Shown here: positions 12,389 to 50,199 of the stretch, piece by piece
Position numbering within the stretch: the stretch's first letter is position 1
Layout of the letters: every line of letters begins with the position of its first letter
From: an uncultured Christensenella sp.
GTDB lineage: Bacteria > Bacillota > Clostridia > Christensenellales > DTU072
Length of the DNA stretch: 59,236 bases
Assembly: GCA_964368435.1 (NCBI GenBank)
Contig: CAYJBS010000002.1
Span: forward strand, 1-59,236
Reading direction: 5' to 3'
Translations under genes and position numbers: made by a program
The notes under the pieces: model-generated
Databases searched by the model: none
Told to the model about the DNA's origin: nothing
The model's input: the letters and a program-made list of their open reading frames with translations, nothing else

Positions 12389-12424
12389 CATAAAGCTGCC
12401 ATATTGCAAAAAAGCCTATTTAAA

Positions 12425-13513: not shown

Positions 13514-13570
13514 AGTATATTCAATTCTGTTAAGCTATATCCCGTACTGATTCTATTTATTTTTGCAATG

Positions 13571-13619
13571 AAAAAAGAGGGCTGAACTCATGTCGTTTGA
13601 GTCAAGCCCTGCTTTTTTT
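13571..13619 (-). terminator. Rho-independent terminator of the giant gene
   Basis: AAAAAAG-AGGGCT-GA-ACTCA-TGTCGTT-TGAGT-CA-AGCCCT-GCTTTTTTT. On the minus strand the hairpin starts about 25 nt past the stop at 13644 and is followed by TTTTTT. Confidence 0.6.
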
Positions 13620-13643
13620 GCTTTTATGGAATATGATTATTAT

Positions 13644-25600: not shown

Positions 25601-28600
25601 TCACCGTGAACGGGAAAGCAGCTTTCAAACCGTAGAAGTTTTCGCTTTCGTACCAACCTTCAAAGACATAGCCTTCTCTCGTTGTTTCGGGAGATGACGC
25701 TATTTTTGTGGCGGTAAGACTTTCGACAGCCTTGCCCTCGTTTGTTACGAAGGTCACCAAATAACCCTCTTCGTCCTCAATGAACTCTTCTTCTCCGCTG
25801 CCCGTCAAAAGGCTGTTCATCAATTCGATGACATTTATGCCCTCTTCGGGGGTAACAAGCGGCTCCGAGAACAGACCGGACAACAGTCCGAGTATGTCTA
25901 TGCCTGTAAGCGAAACTTTGAAAAGTCCAAGCTTCGATAAGTCGGCATAAATCTTGTTGGTAGCGCCAATGAAATACAGCGACAGCAAGGGATTCTCGTT
26001 GTAGCGTATTACGAAGGCGACATTTGTTTTTGTGGGGTCTGCAAAGCTGATGACTGCGCCTAAGGTTATGCCGAAGGTCATCACGGAGTCTTGCATATCA
26101 AAGACCACTCCGCCCTCTTCCATTCCTACCAGCCCTTCAATGAGTCTTTCGAGGGCAATGATGGCATCGGATTTCGGGAAACCGGGTTTCTCCGAACGAG
26201 TTTTTATGCGTAGTTCCGCTTCGAGATTCAACGCAACAGTATCGATAACATTTATGTCTTCATATTCGTTGTCACGCGCTTCCTGAGCAGGATCTATGAT
26301 GTCCATCTCTTCATAAATGAAGTCGACGTCGCGCATCATGGATTGGCTCTTCTCAAAGCTGTAATTTATTTTGAAGGATTTGTATTCGTCAAGCACCAGC
26401 ATAATGCCTGCCAAATCGTCCTTTTCGGAATATCCTATCTTCAACGAATCGAATACCGGTATATCCAAAATTATATCAGGCACACCGCCTTTGGTGACAT
26501 TGTTGAGGTTCTCTAAAAGTGCTGTCAGCAATCCGCCCGTAATGGCAAGGCTGACTTCTTTTGAGTGTCCGACAAACAACAGCATGTTTGCGCCGAAAGG
26601 CATATCTTTTATATCCGGATACAGTCTTGCCAGAGCTTCCGCCTGCGCAAGGCTGTTGCCTTCGTCACCGTTCATCGGGGCAGACTTCGGCTCTTCGTCA
26701 ACGGCAAACATGCCATTGAGCATATCCTTGACTATTGCGCCGAGGTTCAGCGCCGTTGTCTTAATCGCGGGCAATGCTATACCGTTCAAATCGACATAAA
26801 TATCGCCTTGGATATCCGAACCGACATAAGCTATCATCATCTTGCGTTGTCCGTCTTGTAATATCTCGAGTTGCAGTCTGAGGTCGCTCAAGTTGGCGAA
26901 GGAAACGAATGTGGACAGTTTGAAGTCAAACTTTATGTTGAGTTCTTCCGCCGCTTGCAGCTGCAACTGCATTCCCAATAAAGGCATCGTAAGTTCCGAC
27001 AGGTCGAACAGCGCGCATAGATCGTCATTTACTTTCAGCGAGCTATTGATTTCCGTTGCCCAGGCATAGCTGTTCAGCGTTTCGAAATCCGAGAAGTCGA
27101 CTGCTGCGAAGAAATTCTCGTTCGGACCAAGTCTGGCATTTACTTTGCTGATGCCCATCGAAAGGTTAAGTTTCGAGGGTACAACCGTGTTGCCTTCTTC
27201 GTCTCTTATGCCTGCGTCAATAGGTATGGTCAACTTCAGCGTGTTGTCCAGATTATTGAGTTCAAGTTTTATGTCGCCTACCTCATCAAAAGGCAGGTTG
27301 AACAAGTCGGTAATAATGCTTGCAATAGCCGAAGGCATCGCAACAAGAGCAAAGGTGCCCTTGCCTATAGATAAACTCTCGAACAGATTGCCGATTTTTA
27401 TGCCCAGCACTTCCGGACCTGCTTGTTCTTCGTCGGCTTCGTCAGCGTTTTGGATGGCAGAAGGCATGCCCGTTTCGGTTGCTATTTCGTCGGTCTTAAT
27501 GAGGAAATTCTTCAAGAGTTCTGCATCTATGCCCGAGAAGATAGCTGCCGCCTCGACATCAATCTTGATTTTCGGGATACCTAAAAGCGAAGATTCGATA
27601 TACAATCTCGGGTCTAGCTCGCCGCGGGTGATATAACCGCCTTCGAAATAAACTTTCAAGATTACTTCGCCGTCTTCATTTACCATTTCGCCGATTACGT
27701 CAAGCGCGCCTATGCCGCCCTGCAAGTCTATATCGACCTGAAGGTTCAGCGTAATAAGCCCTTGCACTGCTTCAAGTATTCTGATTTGGAAAATAGTCGG
27801 CAGTTCTTGCACGCTGAACAGCGTGCTCCAGTCAAGAATATGTTTGATGAAATCAGCTTCAAGAGTCAGCGACACGCCTATCGTGAATCTGGTCATTACT
27901 TCATTTATGACGAAGCATTGCGCAAACAAATCGGCGTATTCTTCGGTGGTATATTTGTTGTAGAAGTTGTTGTAGGTGGCGTCATCTATTGCTATGACGG
28001 TGTCGTGGAGCATGGAGAATTCAAGCATATAGCCGACAGTCTCGCTGCCCTCTTCTCTCTTCTTCTCCAGCACAAGCCCTACATTGAAGTCGTCGTCATA
28101 GTTTACTCCCAGTTTGCCTCCCGTAAAGATCTTGTCGACAATGGTGAGCAGTTCGTCGCTTATGTCCGGACCAAGGAAAAGTTTCATGACTTCGGTCATG
28201 AGTTCAGAGGTCAACACAAGTCCTGCCTCTTGAGAATTTATTCTGATGAGCGCTTGCAACAAGCTTGATGCCATCACTTCGTCGGCATTGTTGGCGGAAT
28301 AAAGAGCCTCGAAGGGATTTTGTACGCTTTCGCCTATAGATTCTTTGTACTCTCTATAGCCGGGTATCGAATCATACACTGCATTGGACAGCGGATTCAG
28401 CGTCACTTCCTCGTCGCTCATTCCCATCATATTGAGTAGCAGTCTTGAAATATACATCTCGGGCATATGCAGGTTCAGCGCGCTGTCAAAAATCTCGCCT
28501 TGCAGATATATGTCACTGCCGATCAACCATGCATCGATTATGACTTGCTGGAATTCCTCTGAGGAACCCTCGTTCTCATAGTCGAGGATATAATATTTCA

Positions 28601-31600
28601 GCATAATTTCGGCTCTTATGGCATCGTCTATGTCAGTCAAATCTTCTGAAAGCAATTTCGAGAAATCAATGCCTACAAGCCCCGTCAATTCGACATACAG
28701 GGAATGCTCTTCCAAGAACCTGACTGCGCTCTCAATACCGCCGATTGCGGGGAACAGCGCAAGAATATCGTTTATGCCCAATACGCCTTCTTCCAAAGCT
28801 ATTTCCAAGCTGGCATTGAGTTCGAAATACACCTTAAGTTCGTCATAAGGCTTATATTCTTCTTTCTGCGCCTTTGACAACAGTTCGGGAATGGTGGATG
28901 CCCAGTCACCTGTTATGGGATCGATATATTTTGTTTCGTTGGCAAGTTTCAAATCGATTTCTTCGCCAAGCAAAGCAAGTCCAAGCGAAATGTTTGCAAG
29001 ATGGTTGTTCTTTGTGGCAGCTTCGGCATATAGCGTGTCAAAAGTAGCCACGATGTTCTCGAGACTGCTGAGTCTTGTAAGCATCTCTTGAACGGCGCTA
29101 GAAGATCTGTGCGTAGCAAGATTGCGCCATGCGTCTACTTTTCTTAAGTAAGCATATTGATATACATTTCCGGCAAGCGCGGCATACTCGGCGTTCATTT
29201 CCTGAACTTCCGCGGTATAGCTAAGCGTTTGATAAAGCTGCAACATATAATCCCAAGCCTGAGCCTGAAGGATGCCGTCCATCAAATTTACTCTGTCTAT
29301 TGTAATGGAATAAATTCTCCACCAATCCCATGCCGAGGCTTTTGCTTCGCTGGCCGTGCCCAGTTGCTCGGCTTGCAGCGCATCCATTTCGTCCAGCGTC
29401 ACATTGATGTCTTGAATCTCGACATTAATGTTGTTTATGGTGGCTAAGAGGGTATTCCTTTGGCGCAACAGCTGTGCAAGAAGTGTTTGATCTGTTGTGC
29501 CGCTTATTTGGTTGTTGAGATTTTGAAGGTCAAGGTATAGACCTGTTGCAGGAGCCTGTGTGCCAAGCTGCGTTGCAAGCGCGGCTATTCTCTGTTGTTC
29601 GTAGGTCCTCAAAGCGTCCCACGCATTTGCGCGGACGATGATATCACTGTTGGCTAGCTGAGCCTCGATGAATTGAAGGTCTGTTTCTTCAAAGGTGGCG
29701 GCATGATCGGTCATTATTCTCAACCAGCCCAACGCCTTCTTGTCTTTCTCGGTAAAGAGATTTCCTTTGATTTCCCTTTCGAGAATGTTCTGCATCATAG
29801 TATTGATGACAACATGCGCGGGATTCAGCGCATTCAGCGTTTCGGCATATTGTCTCCAAGCCTCTGTTTTCTGTCTTGCTGCATTCCAAGCAGGGAAGCT
29901 TGCGCCGACTGCCAGCAGAATTGATTCCATCGAAATCTTCTCGGACTCGCTCAACGAAGTCTTCTTATAGAGTATGTCCCACGCTTCGCTGTACTTCGCT
30001 TCATTGCCCAATGCTTCAAAAACACTGTCAAGAGTCTGGACTTGTAAAGAATTGCCCAGTTCCCTCATTCTGTTCCACGCCAACATTCTGGCGGTGACCT
30101 CGTCATCATATAGCAACGCTTCCATGAGTGTCGCTGTGGCGGTTTGGCGAGCGGCAACTAATTTGTCCCAAGCCAATGCCAATTTCTTTGTGTGAGTATA
30201 TAGCGGATGTCTTTCGTTGACCCAATCCAACATCTCGTCCATCTCTGCGATCTCGTCGGGAGATGCCAAGCTCTGCTGATATATGAATCTCCAAGCCTCT
30301 GCTTTCTCGTATTCTCTCAATCTGAGAAGATCTGCGGTGTTCAAATCGTTCTTCCACTCTTCCCAAGCCTCTTGTTTGTTGCCGTCGGCTCTCTCAAGCA
30401 GCATATTGAGATAAATAAGGTCTCCGCTGTCATATTCGGAGGATTCCAGATTTATGTCAATCTTCAGTTCGACATGCTTGTCTACTCCGACCTCTACATT
30501 GGGTTCTATTATGCCGCCGATATATTGGTCGACATCTATGCCCAGCATCTTGAGCACTGATTTTATCATGCCCGAAACCAACCTGATAGTCAGTCCTTTT
30601 TGTTCGTCAAGGGCAATCTTCACCATCGCCATTGTTCTTTCCATCTGTTGATCAAGCGTCAACTCGGTAGGATCGGCATTAAACAGCGATTGATAATGCA
30701 TAAGATTGCTGTAATAATCGGCATTCTCGGTATCGTTCGAATCATCTTCAGCGAGGGTACCGCCGCCCAGCACGGTAAAGATATCCATGACGCCACGCAC
30801 TTCTATCTTTTCCAGTCCGATATTGCTGGCATCGATGAATAAGTCGCCTTTTATGTAGGTCAGCAACATTTCGAAACTTCTGTTGGCGGTATAGATATCC
30901 ACCATAACTTGCAAATCTTCAAGTATGTTGAGCATACCTACGGTGACCTTGACATCAAAGTACAATGTGTCGCCCATGTCCTCTTCAAGCGCCAATATAG
31001 GAGCCAGCGCTCTCGAGAAGGGATTTATGTCGCCGATAAGCAATTCGAGCAATTTTGTAAAATCATAAATACCGCTTTCGTCTGCAAGCGTCAACTTGAA
31101 TTGCGTACTCAACGAAAGACTGTTTATGTTTTGGAGCAAATGATAATTTATTTTTTGCGGGCTGATAAGAGTCACTGTATCCCATTTTTCGAAATTCAGC
31201 CTGATGCCGTTTATGGAAATACCCAGCGCCAGAATTTTGTCCATTTCGGTTTCGCTTATATATCTGTCACCCATGGCGATCTCGACACCGATAGTCATAC
31301 TCTTGTTTTCGGGTATGGCGTATATCTTGGCGTGAAGTTCGTTGAATATTTCGAAGTTGTTTAGGTTAAACATCGAAAGCAGCGCTTCGATAGAGGTTCT
31401 CTTGGCAAGTACGAAAAGTCCCTGCTCTCTCAACAAAGCTTCAATGGTCAGCTTGTTGGCAAATGCGCCGCTGGCGTGGAAGAGGTTTTGTTCGGCGGAT
31501 ACCGCTGCTTGCGGCGCTGCCGTCGCTGCCTCTCCGAAGAGCATATCGGTGACATTCTCGATATAGATTCTGTCGCCGCCGATGTCTCTTATGTCTATAA

Positions 31601-37600: not shown

Positions 37601-40600
37601 TGGTATCAATAATGGTGCGTCCGTTCAGCTTGTTGACAATTTCGTTGAGTTGTAAACGTAGTCTGTCCCACGCTTGAGCTTGTTGTTTGTATTTGGGGAA
37701 AGTGGGATAAAGATTGGTGACATAATTAAGCGCTGCGTTTGCTATGGCAAACTCATCCGTCAAGTCGGAATATTCGTCATTCTTTTGGTTCAGCAGTTGC
37801 TGTGCCGCCAGTATTTCTTCGAAAGCGCCGTCTCCATCGCTGATGTAATCTTCAAGATCGCTTATTTCTTCAATCAATATATCTTTTGCTTGCGTACCCG
37901 CAGAATAATAATTTGTCCAGAAAATAGATTTCTTGCGGTCGGAATCCTTGCAGATGGCGTCCCAAGACATGGACTGCGCCTTGATGATGATGTTTGCCAG
38001 CTGTGTTCCTTCAGGCTCATAGTTTTGGTCTTCTTTCAAATCACGTTGGCGCTGAACAAGCTCGTCTTTGTACTTCTGGAACATATCGTTCAAATAGCTT
38101 TTTTCGGCAGTCTCCGAGGTGTCTGAATTCAGCTTGTTCCAGGCAATGGCTTTCGACTCGTCATCGCTCTGCATGATTGCTTGCACTATGTCGTCCATGG
38201 CGCGGCGCTGAAGTTCCATGCCGGCAAGGTATTTTTTGTCCCATTGCATCGCAAACAACTGGTGAAGCGTGCCTTCCACGTCGGTCAAAGCAATTTTCGG
38301 CAGTCCAAAGTGCGAAAGGTCGACATAAGCCTCGTTGTTGATGAGGTATACGGCAAGGAAAATCCCATAGGTCTTGCCATCAATATCAGAAGTGTGTCCG
38401 TTGGCGCCGACTTCGTTGTCTCTGTCATAAATGACTATGGCAAGTTCACTGTCTAAAATATTTAAGATACTTATATTACCTTTTATTGAGTATCCAATAT
38501 TAATGCTGAGTTCACCCAAAGAGAATCTGACGGCAAGACTCTTGACAAGTTGCCCCATGAAACTCGACGGATCGCCGCCCGAATATAAGCGGTCGAACAG
38601 ACCGTTCAGGAAATTGTTTTCGTAAACCTCGGTGCCATCGGGCTTAAGAGAAATATATCCCTCACTGGCGACAGAAATCTTTAGGCTTTCTGCCCAATAT
38701 TTTATGTTTTTGTATTCTTCTACTTTGTGTCCTGTGACCAGCGTATTTCTGCCAATCTTTACGTATAAATCTCTGATGAAATTCAAATCGAGAGTTATCG
38801 CTTCTATTTGGGCATTTCCGGAATCGAGGATACCCATATGGATTTGAATATAATCACCCGTTGCTTTATAGAGCTGTAATTTTATGTGGGCATTGACTTC
38901 GGGCGCTGTCATATTGGTGCCGAGGAATTGAAGCAGTACCGTAAGCAGCTGCGCGCTGACCAATATTTTTATGGATTCAGTAGGTTCTTCTTCGTTGTCT
39001 CTTCCGATGATGATTTCGGAGATTATGGAACCTATGAGTCCCATCATATCCATAGGATCATCTGCCTCAAGCTCAATCTGATCGCCTGCGGCATTGTAAT
39101 ATTCCGCCATGGCGGCGTTGTTCGCTTCGCCCATACCCGAAAGTAGATTGCGGATGCCGACATTCTCCATTTTTAGTTTCGGCAACTCGGCAATGATGTT
39201 GAGCATCGGCAGTTTGCGTTTCAAAACGCCAAGCTGTGAAAGATCGAGATAGAGCGTGTCTTCGCTTCCGACATAATAAACAGTCAGGAAAGCTTCCCTT
39301 TTATGCAAGTCGTCTGCCGGCAAATAAACCATCAAAGCAAGCTCGATATTGCTGAAAGTAACGATATTCAGGTTGGCTTTTATGTCGTATTCGAGATCAA
39401 GACTGCCCGTCTCGTCTATGCCCAAATTGAGCATAACATTCTCTATGATGCCTCCGACTATGCCCGACAAATCGATGCCGTCGCCTGAGGGGAAGGTAGC
39501 GTTTGTGCCTACCGAAATCTCGCCTGAAATATTTATGTTGTAGACGGCAACGTCGTTTACGTCGGTATAATCGCCGTATTTTCCTTCGATCTCGGACAAA
39601 TCAAATTCGGGGAAGGTGAAATAAGTGATACCTTTGACTTTTACGCCGTCGTAGTTTTCGCCGCCGAGATGCACGCCCAGAGCAATATCCTCGGTCACTT
39701 GTATGTCGAGAGCAATGCTGTCAAAAATATTTGCTAAATCAAGTTTCAGGGAAGCGCCTTCAAATCCAAAATCGGCGCCTTCGAGGAACAATCCCAGCAC
39801 TTCGTTGAGTCCTGCTTTGTCGAAAGCAAGCGTCAGCTTCTTTGTGCCCGGCTCTGCCGTCAAGTTCTTAGTGAGGATGTCAAGGATTTTGGCAAAATCC
39901 AATCCGCCCTCCTCCTCATCGCCATCGGCGTTTTGGGGTTCGATCGGTTCGACATAAGCAGGATTGACGTAGGGCATAATGCTGCCTAAAATATCTTCAA
40001 ACAGCACGCCTTGCAGGTCTATGCCGCCTATACTTATATTGGGGATTATGACATCTTTTTTGCCGTCGCTTCTTATTCCTTTGAGGGCAGACAAATCCAA
40101 ATAAAGCACATTGTTTACGACGGCAGCGCCTATCGCAATGGCATTGGGGTCAGGCAATAAATAGCCTCTGATGAATTGTTCACCATTGAAGGTCATCAAA
40201 ATTTCGGCTTTTGTGTTGCGGTTGTCGAACATATCGAGAGCCGCCTTGACATTTATGTCAAAACGATATTCGCTCTGTTCTTTGAACTTCAGAGGAATGT
40301 CGCCTACGGCGCCGAGGTCAACGAAGTCACCCAGCACCGTTCTCAACGTCAATTCCGAATTGGCTTCGTTTTTGATGAATAGAGCGGCGTTTAGTTCGAC
40401 ATTGCCCAAACTGCCTCTCGTATAAGTGGTGTCCTGACCGCCTGCGCCCAACGATAAGTTGGCGAAGGATATGGCAACGGTCTTTTCGTTTGAGGCTTTT
40501 ATGGAAATAGGTGTTATGCGGATATCAAGGTCATACCCGTCTTCAATCTCGGGACAAGTGACACGCATGCCCATACCTGAGAATACATAGTCGTCTTTCT

Positions 40601-41534
40601 TGGTGCCGTCAGCAAGCACAATTTCTTGCAGAGTATTTATGGCAGAAAGCTGCGCCGACATGACGGGCCAGTCTTTGTTTTTTATGGTGTCGAGGTCAAA
40701 ACCAAACAGCATCTTGAGCAACGGATCGAGGTTGGGCAAGCCGAAAGCCTCCCACTCAATAGTAAGATCAAGAAGACTGCCTATCTTCAAACCTGTTTTG
40801 AGAATCTTCAACAGGTCATTGGCTTTCAGTGTATGACTGACAAACTGAGTCTTTTTTGATTCGTCAAAAGAAACGGTGGAAACACTGGAGTCGTATAAAA
40901 TGTTCATAGAAATGGCAAGACCGACATATTCGGCTATTTGCTTCGCCGATTCCGAACTGCCAAAGTTCGGCGCGCCGGCAAGGAACATTCCTAGCATATA
41001 TGAAATATCAAGATTGCTTTCGATGAGCGCCTTGGATATCATTTTGCCTACTTGTGTGAGATTGAGCTCTCTCATGTAGTATTTTTGGCCGTTAATTTCA
41101 AGATACGCATTTGCTTCGACATAGTAGAAACCCAATACTACGTTGCCGTTGTAGACGTTCTTGACGACGAAATACATTTCGCTCTTCATGTTATCGAGAA
41201 GATTTATGTTGGCTTTTACGGTTACGAGGTAGTCAACATTATAAACGGGCGCCACGCCGTAATCGGTGAATTTGTAGGCAACTTGGAAATCAAGGTTCAG
41301 CCATTCGGGATCTGCGACCGTCTTGCGGTCCATATTGTTGACGGCGTTCCTTATGTATGTGTTGGCTTCCTTCTGCGACATTACGATGACTTGCTGATTG
41401 GAGTCAACATTGTCTTTTATGCCGCTTGTTGGAGCTTCATATTCGCCCTCGCCTCTCGCAGAGCAAGATATCAATGCGAATGCCATAATTATGCATAAGA
41501 GCAATAATATCAGTTTTGTTAATTTGGGTTTCAT
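13644..41534 (-). CDS. Giant 9,296-aa surface lipoprotein of unknown function
   Basis: Single ORF of 27,891 nt with no in-frame stop. GGGGAGG RBS (41542-41548) 7 nt upstream of the ATG. Lipoprotein signal peptide at the N-terminus and a terminator after the stop. My hand count of 9,296 residues matches the track. Residue-to-nt mapping was verified in the DNA: YVFEGWY at 25650-25670, LYLDL at 39240-39254, W7289 = CCA at 19668-19670, Y6371 = ATA at 22422-22424. Confidence 0.95.
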   Translation of the reverse strand: MKPKLTKLILLLLCIIMAFALISCSARGEGEYEAPTSGIKDNVDSNQQVIVMSQKEANTYIRNAVNNMDRKTVADPEWLNLDFQVAYKFTDYGVAPVYNVDYLVTVKANINLLDNMKSEMYFVVKNVYNGNVVLGFYYVEANAYLEINGQKYYMRELNLTQVGKMISKALIESNLDISYMLGMFLAGAPNFGSSESAKQIAEYVGLAISMNILYDSSVSTVSFDESKKTQFVSHTLKANDLLKILKTGLKIGSLLDLTIEWEAFGLPNLDPLLKMLFGFDLDTIKNKDWPVMSAQLSAINTLQEIVLADGTKKDDYVFSGMGMRVTCPEIEDGYDLDIRITPISIKASNEKTVAISFANLSLGAGGQDTTYTRGSLGNVELNAALFIKNEANSELTLRTVLGDFVDLGAVGDIPLKFKEQSEYRFDINVKAALDMFDNRNTKAEILMTFNGEQFIRGYLLPDPNAIAIGAAVVNNVLYLDLSALKGIRSDGKKDVIIPNISIGGIDLQGVLFEDILGSIMPYVNPAYVEPIEPQNADGDEEEGGLDFAKILDILTKNLTAEPGTKKLTLAFDKAGLNEVLGLFLEGADFGFEGASLKLDLANIFDSIALDIQVTEDIALGVHLGGENYDGVKVKGITYFTFPEFDLSEIEGKYGDYTDVNDVAVYNINISGEISVGTNATFPSGDGIDLSGIVGGIIENVMLNLGIDETGSLDLEYDIKANLNIVTFSNIELALMVYLPADDLHKREAFLTVYYVGSEDTLYLDLSQLGVLKRKLPMLNIIAELPKLKMENVGIRNLLSGMGEANNAAMAEYYNAAGDQIELEADDPMDMMGLIGSIISEIIIGRDNEEEPTESIKILVSAQLLTVLLQFLGTNMTAPEVNAHIKLQLYKATGDYIQIHMGILDSGNAQIEAITLDLNFIRDLYVKIGRNTLVTGHKVEEYKNIKYWAESLKISVASEGYISLKPDGTEVYENNFLNGLFDRLYSGGDPSSFMGQLVKSLAVRFSLGELSINIGYSIKGNISILNILDSELAIVIYDRDNEVGANGHTSDIDGKTYGIFLAVYLINNEAYVDLSHFGLPKIALTDVEGTLHQLFAMQWDKKYLAGMELQRRAMDDIVQAIMQSDDESKAIAWNKLNSDTSETAEKSYLNDMFQKYKDELVQRQRDLKEDQNYEPEGTQLANIIIKAQSMSWDAICKDSDRKKSIFWTNYYSAGTQAKDILIEEISDLEDYISDGDGAFEEILAAQQLLNQKNDEYSDLTDEFAIANAALNYVTNLYPTFPKYKQQAQAWDRLRLQLNEIVNKLNGRTIIDTKTGNPRLDTSDPSNRIKYSSWNIYKEKVSVDAETWRGLYASASPQTKVVLDALYDELLESLYLRTKEIMPEVARKNALSLLQDHWRAEFRAQYPGENNEQINARVASYLSTNRQLVEEAYLNEAKARIYNHFDRNDIDMLALALYKQQGDISNLAPDNAADFNKILQASKDYILNASYNNPTAILLQMWFGNDKLSINISSEVMNNLLQMLELNLPVTIRETYLALMLGENFGIDLSTGADVFLLEAHIGNFSFGVLEEDRHVIEVPQKIDYAEGTANGIPEAIYVKVEGSLFFINNPINSEGKNLFTFTPLLQEFLAVSPFDKKELREFIDIVKDETELKDEELKREAWDRLYTGSLTVQQRVEMDTRLTLVVEEIAEKEENVTDNEKFARAWDKLISSASLLNLDRMGIDTEIVFNGQSNVSLNFKIEGYIFFADLLKSNFSIEITSDDGSGEQKLVIRAVYNGADVYIDTELFDIGKVKLENIENIITYWQDLFTVLLPEDAAQPQNSAPSYAVEDIKTYLDFMFFDGGFTVALAKAAIMNVIGFLGVDITPYFSELDFGANVTLALNPIAVEAEVFFNILEQRDEYGNLIYERGDRTDYDVNLGLRLGGLDVGFTDKIAVPDESQYANISNFERISISFSGKLDLSLETPDEGYQFDYLVNMFTNFWLQRNPDIGLIFSIIENIYGLEVYFDLSANIDLLSIADLRNLELYFNLTSKEAYDSYHSEVNVLNRSRMENTYASLGSGALAADAWDAYYSFITTSNNLTERERIEEVFNRLRLEYNYLPDDARLKALSWETAYGEAGDFILGDILSLYIVIDDDGIADAYLDLRVLGIEPIVIRDVKNIIAGFTGSPESILPQNSGKELSSPLSAADNSTALLASRILLSIASDETIATSPIIFELTAGAIYGVIASLGFDLEAFLAEGGYHPSAELGLFGDNKLLNLNLEFEKILGFNFSIDIPSIDITNPLPMTINEAKYFEIDDEWSTFKIALEGQMNLAAGTATGTDSIYLGDLLADLLSNDSLGFDVIIRTLSDLEETITFELEAVVNIWKLLNGDLSGLQILLEATNSKGKVLFGIYLLQELDLFGETITTAYIDASAINAGKIRIPNAINIISKLFSSSAEISQANNVSLTELTALAALRSQAMNSSLQNAPDTGAKEYIMALLGQDEGFVMTAATGVITLLLESIFNDETSLMNRAWSDMVQLNMEKERDTALGLARFDLSRMDRYLEEAGELNADNTELWAYDELWQQSSGAQRTALDRRVAAIRSADISISDERAKVMVWNDIYNDLQNDIATYTAKLSKNEIENRSLQELDVVLNMQFKSVAWERWYNNALNSKTEMDKLFEEMQQRYPLESLSVIRSRSWTGYYEMYTGSPTTKTKLDTLYNSIKATNSGLTDAGIREEAWTQLYVEKQTDINNLNLIYNEAILRKTLYGMPEIWTAYYRIWAWEILYLRADETGRERMSQFIDGVLLLNTAPRRAASGWTFYNEEIDAAVLNSITENGELVSYILRPDEGGAWTRIKVARDEQLRLAEIYVNAYSEMHNIIMAAARQNAKIEASLLNGDRILGVELDVANFGLDLSINSIKPGFSELNISLPENFIKEDYKTIDENIASIYVKLAVDFGWEADELSQYDFSNLIETFIGTQDFYLDLGMSIVPVLKVLEQIGSYFRLELEGSINITDIMKSDLNLSLYTMKYVTDELGNEVLTRSDEYVFSILYINGDIFLDMEAFNIQRAHIVDAMDYFQSIFSALGTTVTPSSSANKQLDAGLFNAYSNYALNASGSRAPIDVTLDQTGLAAHVGSAAVLAILNLLGIDLTGAMDSVGELNIDVGVFKDGLLNIEISFNAVDENYIPTGDGIRLHLKLRDDFEIDVDGASHEFAPPSETFIEIRNTVPIIGVSTKILIELEAGMVTERQFIKEPLKSLLDNQGLSEVIQSIILTVWNDQNMVFEIDVKANINLMSFKDIELQVTISNWKTGKRFARINVNDGNLFIDIRDIGGDRIYIENVTDMLFGEAATAAPQAAVSAEQNLFHASGAFANKLTIEALLREQGLFVLAKRTSIEALLSMFNLNNFEIFNELHAKIYAIPENKSMTIGVEIAMGDRYISETEMDKILALGISINGIRLNFEKWDTVTLISPQKINYHLLQNINSLSLSTQFKLTLADESGIYDFTKLLELLIGDINPFSRALAPILALEEDMGDTLYFDVKVTVGMLNILEDLQVMVDIYTANRSFEMLLTYIKGDLFIDASNIGLEKIEVRGVMDIFTVLGGGTLAEDDSNDTENADYYSNLMHYQSLFNADPTELTLDQQMERTMAMVKIALDEQKGLTIRLVSGMIKSVLKMLGIDVDQYIGGIIEPNVEVGVDKHVELKIDINLESSEYDSGDLIYLNMLLERADGNKQEAWEEWKNDLNTADLLRLREYEKAEAWRFIYQQSLASPDEIAEMDEMLDWVNERHPLYTHTKKLALAWDKLVAARQTATATLMEALLYDDEVTARMLAWNRMRELGNSLQVQTLDSVFEALGNEAKYSEAWDILYKKTSLSESEKISMESILLAVGASFPAWNAARQKTEAWRQYAETLNALNPAHVVINTMMQNILEREIKGNLFTEKDKKALGWLRIMTDHAATFEETDLQFIEAQLANSDIIVRANAWDALRTYEQQRIAALATQLGTQAPATGLYLDLQNLNNQISGTTDQTLLAQLLRQRNTLLATINNINVEIQDINVTLDEMDALQAEQLGTASEAKASAWDWWRIYSITIDRVNLMDGILQAQAWDYMLQLYQTLSYTAEVQEMNAEYAALAGNVYQYAYLRKVDAWRNLATHRSSSAVQEMLTRLSSLENIVATFDTLYAEAATKNNHLANISLGLALLGEEIDLKLANETKYIDPITGDWASTIPELLSKAQKEEYKPYDELKVYFELNASLEIALEEGVLGINDILALFPAIGGIESAVRFLEEHSLYVELTGLVGIDFSKLLSEDLTDIDDAIRAEIMLKYYILDYENEGSSEEFQQVIIDAWLIGSDIYLQGEIFDSALNLHMPEMYISRLLLNMMGMSDEEVTLNPLSNAVYDSIPGYREYKESIGESVQNPFEALYSANNADEVMASSLLQALIRINSQEAGLVLTSELMTEVMKLFLGPDISDELLTIVDKIFTGGKLGVNYDDDFNVGLVLEKKREEGSETVGYMLEFSMLHDTVIAIDDATYNNFYNKYTTEEYADLFAQCFVINEVMTRFTIGVSLTLEADFIKHILDWSTLFSVQELPTIFQIRILEAVQGLITLNLQVDIDLQGGIGALDVIGEMVNEDGEVILKVYFEGGYITRGELDPRLYIESSLLGIPKIKIDVEAAAIFSGIDAELLKNFLIKTDEIATETGMPSAIQNADEADEEQAGPEVLGIKIGNLFESLSIGKGTFALVAMPSAIASIITDLFNLPFDEVGDIKLELNNLDNTLKLTIPIDAGIRDEEGNTVVPSKLNLSMGISKVNARLGPNENFFAAVDFSDFETLNSYAWATEINSSLKVNDDLCALFDLSELTMPLLGMQLQLQAAEELNIKFDFKLSTFVSFANLSDLRLQLEILQDGQRKMMIAYVGSDIQGDIYVDLNGIALPAIKTTALNLGAIVKDMLNGMFAVDEEPKSAPMNGDEGNSLAQAEALARLYPDIKDMPFGANMLLFVGHSKEVSLAITGGLLTALLENLNNVTKGGVPDIILDIPVFDSLKIGYSEKDDLAGIMLVLDEYKSFKINYSFEKSQSMMRDVDFIYEEMDIIDPAQEARDNEYEDINVIDTVALNLEAELRIKTRSEKPGFPKSDAIIALERLIEGLVGMEEGGVVFDMQDSVMTFGITLGAVISFADPTKTNVAFVIRYNENPLLSLYFIGATNKIYADLSKLGLFKVSLTGIDILGLLSGLFSEPLVTPEEGINVIELMNSLLTGSGEEEFIEDEEGYLVTFVTNEGKAVESLTATKIASSPETTREGYVFEGWYESENFYGLKAAFPFTVRYATTLYAKWAEDTQPKFPVTFNTNGGEHMDSVTVSILDSEPVPVRDDYVFKGWYITPDFSTLKETFPLAIIKATTLYAKWIEEAAQTIEVTKEVPTLALLLSNQELILNPNTAVLNSLLGMMLPDFADIRMSMNVAEGINNLSMNLKVDNLGNSVNLTVPRGGLTISFNPNTVKVPSAFQLTKYGGLSGLMFNSQNGFNIETIALLDSVLDGIKLYNLEVFLDKRTDYWERKDLYTIYPPGQMGSKGGDEPYANTPTGPVYYPDDDAGYNGVLTDSQQAMLATLNVLKALATLAKAGNFGDAIGDIVSGVDTETKEPIFYRNRYKRGKLRLTKTVGNAIEIAIQTLTWNTGSTNVYLEKHRILLQLGSQFNIKIPVVNISIPLAKWGNSLLSGLTGANSFENKGILLPIALYPRTLIDPPEEEDIIDEETGQIIIPAGNTGRLYGRVTAPGEDNEGVEGMKITIGTPDETNENILTAYTNKEGWYFFLNIPCPEALDEENDDDGDDGNDKAIIEVLNTMSPDEEGFYTYAGKRYVLRGTFYYDVEMGYEIKAEHPKISYGTHVKKEIIVSPKEVSSAQRLDFMVSTVEYATVTVSGVVKNKVGKKLPYTYVNYNNSEGVTADANGNYSLTFKVYDLGAAGNTSATHTIKALAGGYEEGALTLDSIYTNPDSVQTYTRNFELEPTGEIVYLTIIGSLVDGNGMPIVEETTEDDLPNIEIWIKIDGSPTLGTKAYYDIQPINFAAGKIGYDGSFRLESYGDTTDLEKSLPLLTTGTYTIKVRSPVYNNRNFTFTITEEQAASANYVKDIGTIELSKRPFHWYDNEPVVKFLQPDTEEAILPSLLQKIRIRLGADVKDGDEHNNADNVDNEAWNDDGEPYSDYDADMGNLIYEGGGGDLYNDYTYIEIWPDSAMLNDLLMTVQGLLFNMINMSNISKTKRILPIDTSTGSFNREEDSDGNPVDEDKYNVFLGTFNEDDSNIYDPMYASKGAFYQALNSALAKLPGGFIHFAIATVLQSYLRNASFSLGGERIGLIDLIAVGINNPGLVGDAIIGPFAAVSSYIPYVGGLISLLLNGLKQLIVLVFNQLHDILQDASNLLAHAVPFNLAYNMYDTMDLNGSPLNTYYKNGVLTEGKRVDGGKNLRRDVKYFDLSVYAKITLDATADVLADRITLFLNSASFRNETVKLPEDSNYMEEDDRTKQGDWIDGYWEYTGRVADFGNGNLNPAGVNYDIRSREMKERKTIIAGVPQTAAQTAMNEWTRRNNVNSYLVIVDYAIDGDGKEYVYNQTYVYDDETNPKEDTYQEIDINNTGLNFRVLSTMGSEFVKVEHDTGTNEFTHTVMVPPSQITFHDPYDLTDFTMFGGSWVGSSGAVSGSRRNYDPTFTIFDALPDRNMASFVDGHSRGSQGIAMLWDISAVKIDPAGISLQDAVILPGYALNLTYSNVKVVVEPFNIIPGADNIQFLDMEDIDPDTFNEHEYLATLPKMFKYEYQQGDKQKTYFFNELSWSFDKKIVDGIKTYPSLMYDTDETPYVWLTYSYTGAPVQAARVKVSLNIIDRSITTVTASAHALGEETVNSGLELSMNGIEAADAGNAAHNGYDGVVQFSPFDCKDPYTVMKNITHMNVSTSEGLPINDWRVMSGSFVDLNGADGRLSSYDSSDLSRRIYSVTYKLVDKIGFIQTVKILVEIRSKEIIGSDLNTAREVVPYDIYSGGAQKTILQRLGLPDTFNINYGDGTGGTMSVFAPGTEKYTQRNITLEYEGIIQSFTLIEGATLSWMIPLMSYNGGIYKAKALVGGEIAKFKLAEQLTDIRLSNMNALYNEGTCIVNAWDGLYSDSMRIDRSAMNTLVEQLRIQNNLTVRQAKIEAWAVWYGKQDARTQSTLDVRLMKQQMGYTTMSISDAKVESWNTLYAYSYRKELDAMRKRVFDNNPGAPILSLKAVAWDIMIRETANTHQKDIMNGILDSIERQDPDNENLKAAAWDDYYDNSTENKAEMDRLYQRTAAANVGENNRQLTIKSWDKYYSDYTTDNEVLEVTLNVPARVATNIATNLSFAPNETIVLPNRPVINFSGITQNNVPIEWLDIDEAQLVNNFRGKVFYTDAALSDPIFGNQIIRNVRITIQQLDILGIAIADNSVTIDPYDDTTIDDYLAQFDDYKDEYGYDNIGLLLSGGIRLWNKSRQAGFINYWEFELNEGIPAWRYSNEGGISYNGSGENSIILTVRNKGYETNAIWRQEIIVNVPQAHIHNRTISSLASQFATSAGVKLLADKTVEDEALGIIWTFQNGVLNINDAFKMTEIQELYVNFTAGGRALLDARLEMGEYSETFYASAGFALPQGVTVGNRLKNLQKFDINVVNTSPRIVYTYIDDMEQLRKDIKFFASEQAGELTNEVDFDQLVYKTYDNIPLPAYAKVKFVKNNASEVLPLDVVWTNVEPYTNLSTSTQATAKIGNSIFGYIYHTITISLLPEIIRIGTIPLAQLPDELAIFPYVSLEQQLAPYINLIVNTDVRSGLGVDVKIDPLNFADYKANGFLEKAYDISFRIGRTTEFDTAYGVENFDVRQTKTVRVYLREMIAQNIDSLIVGSVYEKIDFGDYDTATVLFSAGAEEELAIDWDISRLRYNYLGGIYYVQATIAKGTQLEQTFDVPVQIIPSQLQSLAVLTPQEVTTYDADYNLQRIEQDLSGGIKRLLIEPFEGFTGLPTMLRARFKNNANDIILYVDWSFSHISNTMSVKGGTYTKEKQNAAIATIYIYENETVLIDGVETVRQIKTGLQSIEVDVLVYDRTITEYQVSYETEGEDFVKVANMPNGTYDPSYLLIDDVIPINPYEKKYSEVFADGAFAYFRRARILLNNRDEEGHDYATGPRSIDFLLEAKNYTIFDKRTGVATSSKNLYTGRDVVVDLKVAIDEPTAASDIKSIKIGDHGYTMEARIMDMTYYSGLDVDNYYIDVYGAIVEKDGNIYSHSVVYDEIVSDRLVSGADYERFGDRATYRFDQITYDGTDINTRFVNNTAVGKIGYKAGVGRLYATFGNTFGGIQKHIIDINYVDRTVKSMFAADPDIAPNYETILDEDGLMTYSFVFDPFKPYVNTTAALLDGEQGYLKHGSKGTTIVFNDGTLFDLASLDNSVRANIEVTWDDATVKLRFVGGNYKVYAQIGDGDSLQRITYPVFVKSRKVKTTIDIFGNQEGFKNIFKDGAENTVLKSYDYLGQPNLTKAIGEALFMGAGNEFRVYFDGFEDEYMAFTMGNYAGVEEGGKIVVHTYKGLGAGRQLTGTYELQEDEQESLLMSFAMDPSKPLSYRGGFMNFYITIPGLAMGVDGQQKAAVAITMEEQYIATIQQGIEDNYNISSAAHLSVEGQGEAITYTQGNLNSYTITNPYYYIKRGGVPMPDYIWIYVTTKEWKEKIASGLAAVDYATREAYYYEGATRISTTLTPYFTDALWSGGSRGRVYVNYYDLTISTTTSMDIDNQPFTFTFNSTPWVYGGYSDQESLINPETNELYTIDAFNDDTEYGPEDIILLPDKTLGSFKEYFQVVYYEGGTYVPFNKALHGYDSKYGFQVTFGSGQQENFLNIQGGGTYYNNNNKWYFGEVMFGSGTTQYATMTLGGRGGQIIRWSFPNLSLRKWVNTNIPSVVTVSGTFTFPKTFQQIFSYGIGSRGLESGISAPLILRNFRTPAGSAINQDNMPGVLPHNSWSQNESQSQAKAKLEEWYAMPEKKVVKHKFTTAENQMYPGYSIALVDYGIDQYCAYPESVENIKGTILLAAYDTVHIYNLSEASEENDWKEFDGTVDNSCNRNENGGVINDDYGNPGDETAYIVNPDHGEAYPNSPLCVDGGWKYPTGLKEGGYGDSAISSFYYNTVNRITQNAVPIIEVERGTRFELYNLPLLQVHYRYEDDGWMNDWGLFTNWHWSKTVTYMPWQEASVWKMGPTDGGWYHSPQGLQFSNYGGQLNGFYDVDTYAPTGTTYTIATTLNVPGSPSVVVRIKLVNVITQY
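13647..14297 (-). other. Trp/Tyr/Gly/Asn-rich C-terminal domain of the giant protein (residues ~9080-9296)
   Basis: Seven Trp in 37 residues (W9201, 9205, 9211, 9213, 9222, 9228, 9237; nt 13824-13934): DDGWMNDWGLFTNWHWSKTVTYMPWQEASVWKMGPTDGGWYHS. No LPXTG motif, no C-terminal TM helix, no SLH or choline-binding pattern. Confidence 0.5.
16086..21383 (-). repeat. Ig-like (Big_4-type pattern) beta-sandwich repeats in the C-terminal third (residues ~6718-8483), interrupted by W-repeat cluster 6
   Basis: Recurring pattern [IVL]-x-W-[DSTL]…G-G/x-Y-x-[VA]-x-A…[VI]-x-[VI]-x-[VI]. Examples: IAMLWDISAV…VKVVVEP (6718-), LSWSFDKK…ARVKVSLNII (6814-), IEWLDIDE…VRITIQQ (7386-), VVWTNVEP…HTITISL (7735-), AIDWDISRLRYNYLGGIYYVQATI…VPVQII (7917-), YVDWSFSH…GGTYTKEK…IEVDVLVY (8024-), EVTWDDATVKLRFVGGNYKVYAQI…YPVFVKS (8437-). 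Confidence 0.4.
19530..20147 (-). repeat. [AS]-W-[DN] helical repeat cluster 6 (residues ~7130-7335, 6 very regular copies)
   Basis: Trp at 7138, 7176, 7215, 7251, 7289, 7327 (spacings 38, 39, 36, 38, 38). Copies: NAWDGLY, EAWAVWY, ESWNTLY, VAWDIMI, AAWDDYY, KSWDKYY. Each is followed by a ~30-aa helix-prone segment ending in a K-[IAV]-x triplet (KIE, KVE, KAV, KAA, IKS) just before the next Trp. Confidence 0.7.
22335..22607 (-). other. Internal hydrophobic, Gly/Pro-rich segment of the giant protein (residues ~6310-6400)
   Basis: KLPGGFIHFAIATVLQSYL…IGLIDLIAVGINNPGLVGDAIIGPFAAVSSYIPYVGGLISLLLNGLKQLIVLVFNQL. This is the most apolar stretch outside the signal peptide. Confidence 0.5.
23160..24287 (-). 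other. Three CarboxypepD_reg-like beta-sandwich domains with an inserted poly-acidic loop (residues ~5750-6125)
   Basis: GRLYGRVTAPGEDNEGVEGMKITIG…TNKEGWYFFLNIP; VTVSGVVKNKVGKKLPYTYVNY…ADANGNYSLTFKV; IIGSLVDGNGMPI…GSFRLES…GTYTIKVRSPVY. The acidic run DEENDDDGDDGND is at 24072-24110 (checked in the DNA). Confidence 0.55.
25350..25763 (-). repeat. Two tandem Listeria-Bacteroides repeats (Flg_new / InlB B-repeat type), residues 5258-5395
   Basis: YLVTFVTNEGKAVES…REGYVFEGWYESENF…TTLYAKWAE and FPVTFNTNGGEHMDS…RDDYVFKGWYITPDF…TTLYAKWIEE. This is the canonical V-x-F-x-x-N-G-G … Y-x-F-x-G-W-Y … L-Y-A-K-W signature. Confidence 0.85.
29100..30383 (-). repeat. [AS]-W-[DN] helical repeat cluster 5 (residues ~3718-4145, ~11-12 copies)
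   Basis: EAWEEW (3724), EAWRFIY (3748), LAWDKL (3788), LAWNRM (3820), EAWDILY (3852), PAWNAA (3883), EAWRQY (3893), NAWDAL (3972), SAWDWW (4069), AQAWDYM (4094), VDAWRNL (4136). Confidence 0.6.
33000..34007 (-). repeat. [AS]-W-[DN] helical repeat cluster 4 (residues ~2510-2845, ~9 copies)
   Basis: Trp at 2517, 2561, 2602, 2646, 2684, 2725, 2768, 2804, 2838, with spacings of 34-44 residues. Examples: RAWSDM, VWNDIY, VAWERWY, SWTGYY, EAWTQLY, WAWEILY, GWTFY, GAWTRI. Confidence 0.6.
35181..35357 (-). repeat. [AS]-W-[DN] helical repeat cluster 3 (residues ~2060-2118, 2 copies)
   Basis: ADAWDAYY (W2067) and ALSWETAY (W2111), 44 residues apart. Confidence 0.5.
36390..36572 (-). repeat. [AS]-W-[DN] helical repeat cluster 2 (residues ~1655-1715, 2 copies)
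   Basis: REAWDRLY (W1661) and ARAWDKLI (W1705), 44 residues apart. Confidence 0.5.
37035..38267 (-). repeat. [AS]-W-[DN] helical repeat cluster 1 (residues ~1090-1500)
   Basis: Helix-prone, charged sequence containing QWDKKY (W1098), AWNKL (W1132), SWDAI (W1191), AWDRL (W1289), SWNIY (W1332), TWRGLY (W1346), HWRAEF (W1396). Confidence 0.55.
41463..41534 (-). other. Lipoprotein signal peptide of the giant protein (residues 1-24, Cys24)
   Basis: MKPKLTKLILLLLCIIMAFALIS-C: basic n-region, hydrophobic core, and an L-I-S-C lipobox matching [LVI][ASTVI][GAS]C. Confidence 0.8.
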
Positions 41535-41793: not shown

Positions 41794-42594
41794 TCACAGC
41801 AACAATTGGTTCTTGAAACCTTCTATTTTGTCCTCAACGAACTGTCGAAGTGTGGTGTTTTTGTCGGACAAAAGCGGTAATAAATCGATACCGAAGCTGA
41901 CCAGCTCCGCAGTATTGACTGCATGAGAACGGCTGAAAGTGGCATTGGCAAGCCGTCTTCCTTGAATCGCCAAATCGTATCTCTTGCCGCCTTTTACTTG
42001 CGACTTATGGACGGCTATCAAACGGCGCAACAGTCGTTTGTATCCCGAAAGGTCAAACAGCGCCTTGTCCTCGTCGTTCAGCCAGTCGAGATCTCGCCAA
42101 CATTCGCAACCGAAAAAGCTGCGCGGCTTATAATCCGGAAGCGCGCGCAAAGCGTTCAAGACGCTTTTGGCTACATTGACATGGGTGTTGTGTTTGTCGG
42201 CGGGGTTGTGGGTATATATCGTGTCGGGACAAAACTCCTTGGCGATCTCTTGTATGTCGGCAATCAAACCTTTGTTTTCATCGTTTATTTCGGCGCTGGG
42301 ATAATTTAGAAATATCAGAGTAGCATACCGCCCTATTTTTGCGGCGCTTATCTGCTCCTTTCTTCGTTGCTCTACCATCTGTTCGTCGGTGAAATCGGCA
42401 TATTTGCCGTTGCGCGGACTGCCCGAGCCGTTGCTGACAATAACAGCTACAAGCCCTTTTTTTTCGTCGTCATAACATTGCACAATGCCGTCTCCGCACA
42501 TAATCTCGGCATCGTCCTGATGCGCGGCGAAAACCAAATGGGTATAAATGTTTTTTTTGCCTCGAATGACTTCGGCTCTTTTGTTTAGTTGCAT
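41794..42594 (-). CDS. PIG-L family deacetylase (LmbE-like N-acetylglucosaminyl deacetylase)
   Basis: LVFAAHQDDAEI (AHPDDE-type zinc-binding motif) and THNPADKHNTHV (HPDH-type motif). The ATG at 42594 has an AAGAGGA RBS 5 nt upstream. The ORF-track start at 42621 is a GTG that overlaps the upstream gene by 16 nt. No signal peptide. Confidence 0.85.
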   Translation of the reverse strand: MQLNKRAEVIRGKKNIYTHLVFAAHQDDAEIMCGDGIVQCYDDEKKGLVAVIVSNGSGSPRNGKYADFTDEQMVEQRRKEQISAAKIGRYATLIFLNYPSAEINDENKGLIADIQEIAKEFCPDTIYTHNPADKHNTHVNVAKSVLNALRALPDYKPRSFFGCECWRDLDWLNDEDKALFDLSGYKRLLRRLIAVHKSQVKGGKRYDLAIQGRRLANATFSRSHAVNTAELVSFGIDLLPLLSDKNTTLRQFVEDKIEGFKNQLLL

Positions 42595-42605
42595 TTTTCC
42601 TCTTA

Positions 42606-46933: not shown

Positions 46934-46946
46934 AATATTCTCCATG

Positions 46947-50141: not shown

Positions 50142-50170
50142 GTCGCTCCAATAAAAATTATCGTATATAT

Positions 50171-50199
50171 ATAATAAAACTTTTAACAACTCTTGTCAA
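50171..50199 (-). promoter_or_regulatory. Sigma-A-type promoter of the transglutaminase-like / PIG-L operon
   Basis: Minus strand TTGACA (50194-50199), 17 nt spacer, TATTAT (50171-50176), about 30 nt upstream of the ATG at 50141. Confidence 0.5.

Follow-up and report, generated by a model that had tools for sequence, protein, structure and literature searches.

A giant gene with fourteen divergent modules

A 59,236-nucleotide stretch of DNA from an uncultured Christensenella sp. (contig CAYJBS010000002.1), referred to as a whole as the window, carries one very large open reading frame (ORF) of 9,296 amino acids (aa) including the stop codon (13644..41534, minus strand). This is an intact single ORF with an ATG start, and a Shine-Dalgarno sequence, GGGGAGG, is located 7 nt 5' of the ATG. 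The N-terminal part of the encoded protein is an array of fourteen divergent copies of one module, and the number and order of these modules are conserved in a family of giant proteins. The array is interrupted by clade-specific inserts, and the gene stands in a conserved cluster. Coordinates of the giant protein and of the genes upstream of it are window positions on the minus strand.

The protein begins with a lipoprotein signal peptide with the lipobox L-I-S-C (aa 1-24, 41463..41534; MKPKLTKLILLLLCIIMAFALISC). Residues 19-24 read FALISC, in agreement with the lipobox pattern [LVI][ASTVI][GAS]C. Twenty giant proteins from other sources align with the window protein over the full length at 17-32% identity, and Cys24 is near-invariant (at least 90%) across the resulting alignment of 21 giants. 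The giant is predicted to be a surface lipoprotein acylated at Cys24.

The array of 14 modules with its inserts spans aa 28-5515 (24990..41453), as delimited by hidden Markov model (HMM) scans, the leave-one-out test described below and a family HMM. Its first residue is at about aa 28, just past the lipobox cysteine, and its last at about aa 5515. An earlier note on this DNA had placed fourteen copies within the N-terminal 5,200 residues; the number of copies stands, but the array reaches from about aa 28 to about aa 5515 and does not end at 5215.

In the leave-one-out test, an HMM built from 13 copies was used to score the fourteenth, with 200 shuffles for each left-out copy. The left-out copies scored 9.2-63.1 bits, compared to shuffle maxima of 2.4-10.1 bits, and each of the 14 exceeded its own shuffles. 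The weakest were the copies at residue 4342 (9.2 versus 4.2 bits) and residue 477 (12.6 versus 6.2 bits). When the whole protein was shuffled locally, 50 times, the module HMM scored at most 9.3 bits. Self-BLAST with the whole giant protein returned the identity match only. Self-BLAST of fragment against fragment gave many off-diagonal matches, for example residues 2901-3167 with 3440-3698 (E=1e-13) and 603-790 with 5027-5224 (E=8e-7). Internal periodicity is significant by both the fragment matches and the leave-one-out scores, and the fourteen diverged copies of a beta-rich module of ~250-340 aa proposed from the first inspection were all recovered.

The junction motif by which the copies were initially recognised is visible at all 14 residues reported for it, but the proposed consensus, applied as a strict regular expression, matches only two (1069 and 3565), which means that the consensus is loose. 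Spacings between insert-free copies are 254-334 aa, as had been counted. The 14 paralogous modules are 17-24% identical to each other. No direct or tandem repeats were detected at the DNA level in the array, in line with the claim that the copies are too diverged to be seen in the DNA.

Layout of the array

In the following, scores in bits are those of the leave-one-out test, and occupancy refers to the 21-giant alignment. Modules 1 (aa 28-302, junction 143; 40629..41453; 21.4 bits), 2 (aa 329-632, junction 477; 39639..40550; 12.6 bits) and 3 (aa 626-927, junction 761; 38754..39659; 38.5 bits) are delimited by their HMM envelopes. Module 4 is split by an insert. Its first part (aa 923-1100, junction 1069; 38235..38768; 47.9 bits) is followed by the helical Insert 1 (aa 1101-1495; 37050..38234), which matches a 38-aa 'AWD..Y' repeat and has an occupancy of 0-0.17 in the other 20 giants. 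The part of Module 4 after the insert (aa 1496-1600; 36735..37049) has a family occupancy of 0.81 and a weak HMM match at 1470-1526. Insert 2, also helical (aa 1601-1715; 36390..36734), combines low family occupancy with helical-repeat matches.

Module 5 (aa 1716-1905, junction 1780; 35820..36389; HMM envelope, 48.8 bits) leads to Module 6 (aa 1921-2270, junction 2141; 34725..35774; 28.0 bits), which contains helical Insert 3 at aa 2035-2110, and to Module 7 (aa 2268-2500, junction 2410; 34035..34733; HMM envelope, 35.4 bits). Insert 4 (aa 2501-2880; 32895..34034) consists of helical repeats, is of low occupancy and gives a BLAST match between residues 2502-2735 and 7124-7337 (E=1e-5). It is followed by the highest-scoring copy, Module 8 (aa 2881-3176, junction 3044; 32007..32894; 63.1 bits), and by Modules 9 (aa 3170-3446, junction 3311; 31197..32027; 50.5 bits) and 10 (aa 3425-3707, junction 3565; 30414..31262; 44.4 bits), both defined by HMM envelopes.

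Insert 5 (aa 3708-4190; 28965..30413), again of low occupancy and with helical-repeat matches, precedes the weakest copy, Module 11 (aa 4191-4500, junction 4342; 28035..28964; 9.2 bits). Module 12 (aa 4501-4805, junction 4644; 27120..28034; HMM envelope, 21.0 bits) and Module 13 (aa 4777-5059, junction 4912; 26358..27206; 39.7 bits) follow. Module 14 is again in two parts. The first (aa 5054-5257, junction 5195; 25764..26375; 31.2 bits) holds the best-conserved junction across the family. In the linker that follows lie two Flg_new (Listeria-Bacteroides) repeats (aa 5258-5400; 25335..25763; Pfam PF09479, E=9e-19; TIGR02543). The second part (aa ~5401-5515; 24990..25334) has an occupancy of 0.92 and weak HMM matches, and the last family-HMM domain ends at residue 5515.

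A small family of giants in uncultured Clostridia

The 14 copies were combined into a profile of 265 positions, and 1.84 billion cluster representatives were searched with it exhaustively at E<=1e-3. The profile matched 147 representatives, 87 of them at E<=1e-10 and 36 at E<=1e-30. Giants of 5,600-7,900 aa, matched in 11-15 stretches, make up many of the 147; the others have the appearance of fragments. The wide HMM search that the earlier note had called for reveals a small family of giants. No very large lipid-handling or adhesin family was among the 147 matches, so the module is isolated in sequence space. One match (P0093) was rejected as a member: it is a SpaA_2 repeat protein whose match to the junction region is a sum of weak matches. 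Nine other weak matches were scanned and contained no Pfam domain. In a word-indexed protein search, three modules gave no match, and a clean alignment used as query retrieved nothing but a fragment (P0023). No description of the giant family was found in the searchable literature. The junction tyrosines are mostly near-invariant in the 21-giant alignment, and the window protein shares the full-length collinear homology, the ~14 modules and the lipobox of the family. The other ORFs in the window contain no module copies.

A single motif pattern was used to scan one genome for each of 185,579 GTDB species, which gives a lower bound. At least 13 loci were found, all from metagenome-assembled genomes (MAGs) of uncultured Clostridia, mostly Christensenellales. 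The hosts are Christensenellales/Christensenellaceae, Ca. Stercoripulliclostridium, unclassified Clostridia, Clostridiales, one MAG labelled only 'bacterium', a Faecalibacterium-labelled MAG and Ca. Faecicola. Module arrays are present at all 13 loci. The giant ORF is unbroken from the locus start in 13 of 13 and to the locus end in 11; in the other two (L013 and L014) it runs unbroken to ~6 kb past the match. The closest locus, from a Christensenellales bacterium (L002), has an unbroken ORF that shares 81% identity with window aa 1733-8581 (6,863 aligned positions), so the window itself most probably derives from a Christensenellales genome.

In another close relative (L001; ENA ERZ18242344 NODE_876, 22-14698), gene calling splits the giant homologue into three adjacent genes of 1,050, 498 and 4,162 aa. 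The fragment P0023 comes from this locus and is 71% identical to the window protein. The split into three genes probably results from frameshifts or assembly errors, and the locus exemplifies how database entries of such giants end up fragmented.

Module number and order are fixed

A family-wide HMM was iterated over all giants and yielded 267 module instances. In 20 of the 21 giants there are 13-15 modules, with a mode of 14. The exception (P0010) has 8 modules and aligns only from about the eighth module onward; it therefore appears to lack the N-terminus. Modules of the window protein were also compared individually with those of other giants. Against P0002, the best partner of each module was at the equivalent position in 13 of 13 cases, with a top score 1.4-4.6 times that of the runner-up, and against P0007 the same was true in 12 of 13 cases. 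The fixed counts and the one-to-one positional partners indicate that the array is ancient, has not been homogenised and is constrained in both number and order. An old and selectively maintained array, as first suggested from the divergence of the copies, is thus supported by a ~14-module layout in 20 of 21 members at 17-32% identity and by one-to-one modules in the closer orthologues. A recently amplified or recombining repeat was rejected on the positional orthology and the lack of DNA-level repeats.

Inserts and a second, helical repeat

Occupancy in the 21-protein alignment is 0.75-0.95 over the modules compared to ~0-0.2 over the inserts. The low-occupancy stretches are aa 1101-1500, 1601-1700, 2001-2100, 2501-2880, 3701-4190 and 5260-5400, and also 7101-7340. 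Clade-specific loop insertions, consisting of 38-aa helical repeat arrays and the two Flg_new repeats, add ~1,500 aa to the window protein. The insert repeat unit is a helical ~38-aa element that has A-W-D-x-[LW]-Y at its centre and of which 13 copies score higher than any shuffle. Every array insert except the Flg_new pair contains it, which the earlier note had overlooked: the long inserts are clade-specific arrays of this second repeat. Six units also stand in perfect tandem in the C-terminal half (aa 7126-7351, window 19482-20165). The helical repeat has no Pfam match. Among family members, it occurs in the closest locus (L002) and, as weak traces only, in L015 and L016, but nowhere else.

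The Flg_new pair, which splits Module 14, is absent from the other 20 giants (occupancy 0.04). In P0001 and P0002, 13-14 modules are contiguous within ~3,900 aa; P0002, which is free of inserts, has 14 in a row within aa ~70-3770. Segments orthologous to window aa 4700-5257 are 520-1,035 aa long for the same two units (P0001, P0003, P0006, P0010 and others). In these same proteins, loops or linkers of modules 12-14 hold unannotated inserts of their own, 150-480 aa in length. Because inserts are found in different loops of different modules, and other members have different inserts at positions of this kind, the module loops and the linker after the junction tolerate insertion of whole domains. 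This suggests that the module scaffold is a general platform for inserted domains.

Module anatomy and fold

Pfam and NCBIfam scans of aa 1-5000 gave no match at E<=0.1. With the 14 paralogous modules and 17 orthologous two-module segments, scanned at E<=10, only unrelated singletons appeared and no family was hit twice. These 31 module sequences bear out the expectation that no established Pfam family covers the module at full length. PDB sequences gave no match to the module profiles even at E<=10. On sequence grounds, the ~280-aa module is a previously undescribed domain family within the familiar class of giant surface proteins.

The family-wide module consensus has 230 match columns, in which period-2 hydrophobic runs, as expected of amphipathic strands, are interleaved with i/i+3/i+4 patterns typical of amphipathic helices. 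The signature reads ...L-g-v-Y-l..g.t-L-Y-x-D-l-s-g-l-G-l-p-k-x-k-i..., and a variable linker comes after it. The signature hairpin ends G-x-Y-[YL]...[LV]-Y-x-D-L-S-G-L-G-L-P-K-[IV], and the linker after it is flexible and of low complexity. No 18-30-residue periodicity is present in the family module profile, whose autocorrelation is highest at lags of 2, 10 and 4 and does not exceed 0.18. When halves or thirds of the profile were aligned with each other by hhalign, no resemblance was found (probability <=0.6%). With neither the short periodicity nor similar halves or thirds, the ~280-aa module is the basic unit. The hhalign comparison of halves also led to the rejection of the module as a tandem of two halves of the repeating beta-groove (RBG) type.

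Two AlphaFold2 models were obtained. The first, of Module 8 with 14 paralogous rows, has a predicted local distance difference test score (pLDDT) of 56.8. The second, of aa 4700-5257 with 17 orthologous rows, contains two units, including Module 13, and has a pLDDT of 62.4 and a predicted template modelling score (pTM) of 0.43. In both models, antiparallel hairpins of 8-16 residues are predicted, with ~12 strands and 2-3 helices per linker-to-linker unit. The modelled helices are 8-17 residues long, and the linkers fall below pLDDT 50. The quality of the models does not suffice to assign a fold, or to demonstrate or exclude a groove. Foldseek searches of the PDB with both models returned nothing at E<=0.001. 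The sole high-probability match of these low-confidence models was LolA (2w7q_A; probability 0.94, E=0.024, target-normalised template modelling (TM) score 0.34). For the model of the other module, also of low confidence, RseB ranked first and LprF fourth, at E values of 0.2-0.4. LolA, RseB and LprF share the LolA-type unclosed barrel, and the folds of RseB and LprF are lipid-binding ones. The structural comparison that had been proposed as a check therefore yields no significant match and no beta-helix, only a weak LolA-like resemblance. This resemblance may be read as a recurring, non-significant hint, as low-confidence models can match meaninglessly.

The C-terminal half and the gene neighbourhood

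The C-terminal ~3,800 aa (13647..24989) are mostly unannotated. In addition to the six tandem helical repeats, weak matches to CarboxypepD_reg-like and Big_4-like beta-sandwich domains were observed, and no PDB relative was found for this half. Flg_new, Big_4 and CarboxypepD_reg-like domains are typical of surface proteins.

Directly upstream of the giant lies a gene for a PIG-L/LmbE-family deacetylase (41794..42621; Pfam PF02585, E=1.5e-21), then one for a 280-aa homologue of the TTE1925-like mutarotase (42606..43448). The latter is negative in Pfam and matches NCBIfam NF052227 over its full length (E=4e-58), below the equivalog cutoff. Two lipoprotein-like proteins of 1,166 and 1,080 aa follow (43445..50189), each with Big_2 domains and a transglutaminase core. 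The conservation of this arrangement was assessed by a metagenome scan with the N-terminal module, which yielded 12 loci (L015-L026) with up to 10 kb of upstream DNA, searched by tblastn with the window neighbours. The same-strand order at these loci is Big_2/transglutaminase-core protein(s), then the 280-aa protein, then the deacetylase, then the giant. The deacetylase is upstream of the giant at 10 of the 12 loci, the 280-aa protein is found at 7 and the transglutaminase-core proteins at 9. Some absent partners reflect short upstream sequence (L019, L023); L017 and L025 have 4 kb upstream and no PIG-L match. The gene order is kept even where the giant's N-terminus is only 29-36% identical. 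Beyond the cluster, an rlmB-type SpoU methylase and a sigma factor are syntenic in the window, L015, L016 and L024.

The two larger neighbours resemble the MAG6410-family transglutaminase-related lipoproteins (NCBIfam NF045980) in their transglutaminase core and lipoprotein-like N-termini. They differ in scoring 37-72 bits compared to an equivalog cutoff of 450, and in adding Big_2 domains and ~600 residues. We know of no link between that family and a giant partner.

The remainder of the window looks like an ordinary Bacillota chromosome: the rlmB-type SpoU methylase adjoins the sigma factor, and a ParA/Mrp-type ATPase, an aminotransferase, an AI-2E-family transporter, DUF6530 and DUF6320 are also present. 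The transporter gene is directly downstream of the giant (12425-13513). An AI-2E-type transporter is also downstream of the giant in L013 (19075-19965) and L014 (19333-20133), which come from the Faecalibacterium-labelled MAG and Ca. Faecicola and are the two most distant genome loci. A 2,020-aa unannotated protein (754-6816, minus strand) has an N-terminal signal or transmembrane segment, a C-terminal transmembrane anchor and a basic tail. Neither Pfam nor NCBIfam matches it, and a relationship to the giant was rejected as there is no similarity. A 490-aa ORF (7895-9367, minus strand) has a lipoprotein-like N-terminus (...FLLTGC) and no Pfam match.

A possible fixed-length scaffold and its alternatives

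The explanation we favour, which in our judgement has an even chance of being right, is that the region is the membrane-proximal half of a giant lipid-anchored surface protein and serves as a fixed-length scaffold of 14 non-interchangeable modules. Surface exposure, a rod-like shape, the scaffold role and a link to glycans are what we infer from the features described above. The array would consist of 14 copies of a mixed beta/alpha domain of ~230-280 residues, each with amphipathic antiparallel hairpins and 2-3 amphipathic helices, and would act as a long scaffold or stalk of fixed length. Tethered by acylated Cys24 in the cytoplasmic membrane, it would project the beta-sandwich-rich C-terminal ~3,800 residues outward from the cell. 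Surface loops and linkers would accept extra domains, namely the helical 38-aa arrays and Flg_new in the window lineage and others in other members. The giant would probably cooperate with the transglutaminase-related lipoproteins, the mutarotase-like protein and the PIG-L deacetylase to bind or process a substrate outside the cell that probably contains glycans.

Several observations weigh against this explanation. Both AlphaFold models are of low confidence (pLDDT 57-62, pTM 0.40-0.43), too low to establish a rod shape or the geometry between modules. Domain scans identify no adhesive or catalytic domain in the C-terminal half. The functional link to the cluster partners is guilt by association, and the mutarotase and PIG-L partners have no obvious signal peptides and may be cytoplasmic. 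In members at ~17% identity, pairwise scores no longer show the positional correspondence of modules, although the count of 14 persists. In addition, a fixed module number with positional conservation fits a conduit or a molecular ruler equally well.

One alternative, which we regard as unlikely, is that the giant is an element of an outer protein layer or wall-spanning lattice, similar to a surface layer (S-layer), in Clostridia that stain Gram-negative without having an outer membrane. The 14-module length would then be a spacer or ruler. A module number fixed across the family, the lipid anchor, the atypical staining of the Christensenella envelope and the retention of a chromosomal site beside housekeeping genes (the SpoU methylase and sigma factor of the window, L015, L016 and L024) are all compatible with such a layer, in which transglutaminase-type partners could cross-link or process envelope proteins. 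However, Pfam and NCBIfam scans revealed no SLH, CWB2 or other wall-binding domain, and there is no sign of self-assembly. The family is also rare (13 of 185,579 GTDB species with one motif pattern, a lower bound), and its clade-specific decoration, with Flg_new and helical repeats, is more in keeping with an interaction surface than with a lattice.

The main rival to the scaffold is a conduit for hydrophobic cargo, which we consider distinctly improbable. Here the modules would be open barrels or grooves of the LolA or AsmA/TamB type, lined up as a membrane-anchored channel for lipids or lipoproteins, as in the repeating beta-groove suggested in the earlier note. The strict alternation of amphipathic strands across the module profile would suit such a groove, as would the membrane-anchored N-terminus. 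LolA was the sole high-probability Foldseek match, RseB and LprF ranked first and fourth for an independent model, and bridge-like lipid transfer proteins also have a fixed module number and positional conservation. On the other hand, the models are of low confidence and no Foldseek match reaches E<=0.001. The 31 module sequences show no Pfam, NCBIfam or PDB sequence link to LolA, LppX/LprG, AsmA, TamB or Chorein at E<=10, and the search of 1.84 billion proteins drew in none of those very large families. The module, with ~280 aa and ~12 strands, is not a duplication of two ~140-aa units, and long disordered linkers and inserted domains break up the array. Finally, there would be no second membrane to bridge, since Christensenella is listed among the Bacillota without LpxABCD, LptA, OmpH and BamA (PMC11448272).

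An elongated beta-solenoid of stacked short coils, the other guess made initially, would account for the beta-rich composition and the alternating hydrophobic pattern, but it is very improbable: there is no 18-30-residue periodicity and no sub-repeat or internal duplication by profile-profile comparison, the models have long antiparallel hairpins of 8-16 residues plus helices of 8-17 residues, and no beta-helix is among the Foldseek matches. The idea that the giant ORF is a product of chance or of misassembly, or a pseudogene in decay, has next to no probability and is effectively refuted by conservation: the three-gene call in the close relative and the lack of an exact copy of the window proteins in the protein collection are outweighed by an uninterrupted 27.9-kb ORF with a Shine-Dalgarno sequence and signal peptide, by homologous unbroken ORFs that fill 10-20-kb loci in 13 genomes at 30-89% identity, and by position-specific conservation at the amino-acid level.

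Significance and comparison with known systems

The Christensenellales, most of them uncultured, are widespread bacteria of the gut with an association with health, and to our knowledge their cell-surface biology is essentially unknown. The giant represents a conserved 17-28-kb gene with an almost entirely 'dark' product and is a candidate surface structure for contact with hosts, particles or other microbes. Its evolutionary signature is an unusual one of a fixed number of modules, copies that are orthologous by position and loops that take in whole domains. The co-conserved neighbour genes point to extracellular protein or glycan processing. In practical terms, the module definition is a handle for annotating ~150 protein clusters without descriptions, and two or three modules are a tractable target for structure determination.

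There is so far no evidence for a new mechanism. A bolder possibility, which we hold to be doubtful, is that the array is a new fold and a new fixed-length extracellular machine in outer-membrane-less Clostridia. It could be a lipid-anchored hydrophobic-groove conduit or a molecular ruler of tens of nanometres that, together with the transglutaminase-like lipoproteins, moves material, or sets its position, between the membrane and a distal head that serves in binding or processing. If true, this would be an independently evolved monoderm analogue of bridge-like transfer proteins. If the LolA-like hints hold, long tandem arrays of lipid-binding barrels would exist outside diderm envelopes.

The LolA-like unclosed barrels (LolA, LolB, the large domain of RseB and the mycobacterial LppX/LprG/LprF) are domains of ~200 aa with long curved antiparallel strands and helices, and several are lipoproteins. 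In the Foldseek results for the two modules, which were modelled independently, only the resemblance to these barrels recurs, and it is weak. All of these matches are non-significant (E 0.02-0.4, TM <=0.34), and there is no sequence similarity. We know of no LolA-like domains in 14-fold tandem arrays.

The RBG/AsmA-like bridge proteins (TamB, YhdP and VPS13-type) resemble the giant in being long and anchored in the membrane at the N-terminus. They also share ancient, diverged repeats of amphipathic antiparallel strands, each followed by an often disordered loop, with number and order conserved within a family. The RBG unit consists of five strands and a loop in ~150 aa, head to tail, whereas the window unit does not conform to this plan: it is about twice as long (~230-280 aa), contains helices and has no internal duplication. 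The giant's predicted anchor is a lipid-modified cysteine and not a transmembrane helix, its array is broken by large domain insertions and its host group is without outer-membrane markers. Neither Chorein_N, AsmA nor TamB/DUF490 profiles match the module, and such proteins are absent from the 147 profile matches.

In overall architecture, the giant is also close to the fibrillar adhesins and other giant repeat-stalk proteins (Ebh, SiiE and Bap/Lap-type; the class is surveyed in PMC9210967). Both are very large, secreted and anchored, with a tandem array of beta-rich domains (here half of the length), surface-type accessory domains and a distal region that is presumably functional. No adhesive domain is recognised in the giant, which has Flg_new and weak CarboxypepD_reg and Big_4 matches. 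Anchoring is by an N-terminal lipobox, whereas adhesins use a C-terminal sortase signal, a type I secretion system or a wall anchor. The adhesin stalk is built from known, usually near-identical domains of ~100 aa, while the giant's ~280-aa unit is outside the known stalk-domain families. In typical stalks of variable length the repeats are homogenised and differ in number; the window array is the opposite, with ~14 copies at ~20% identity that are fixed in number and positionally orthologous.

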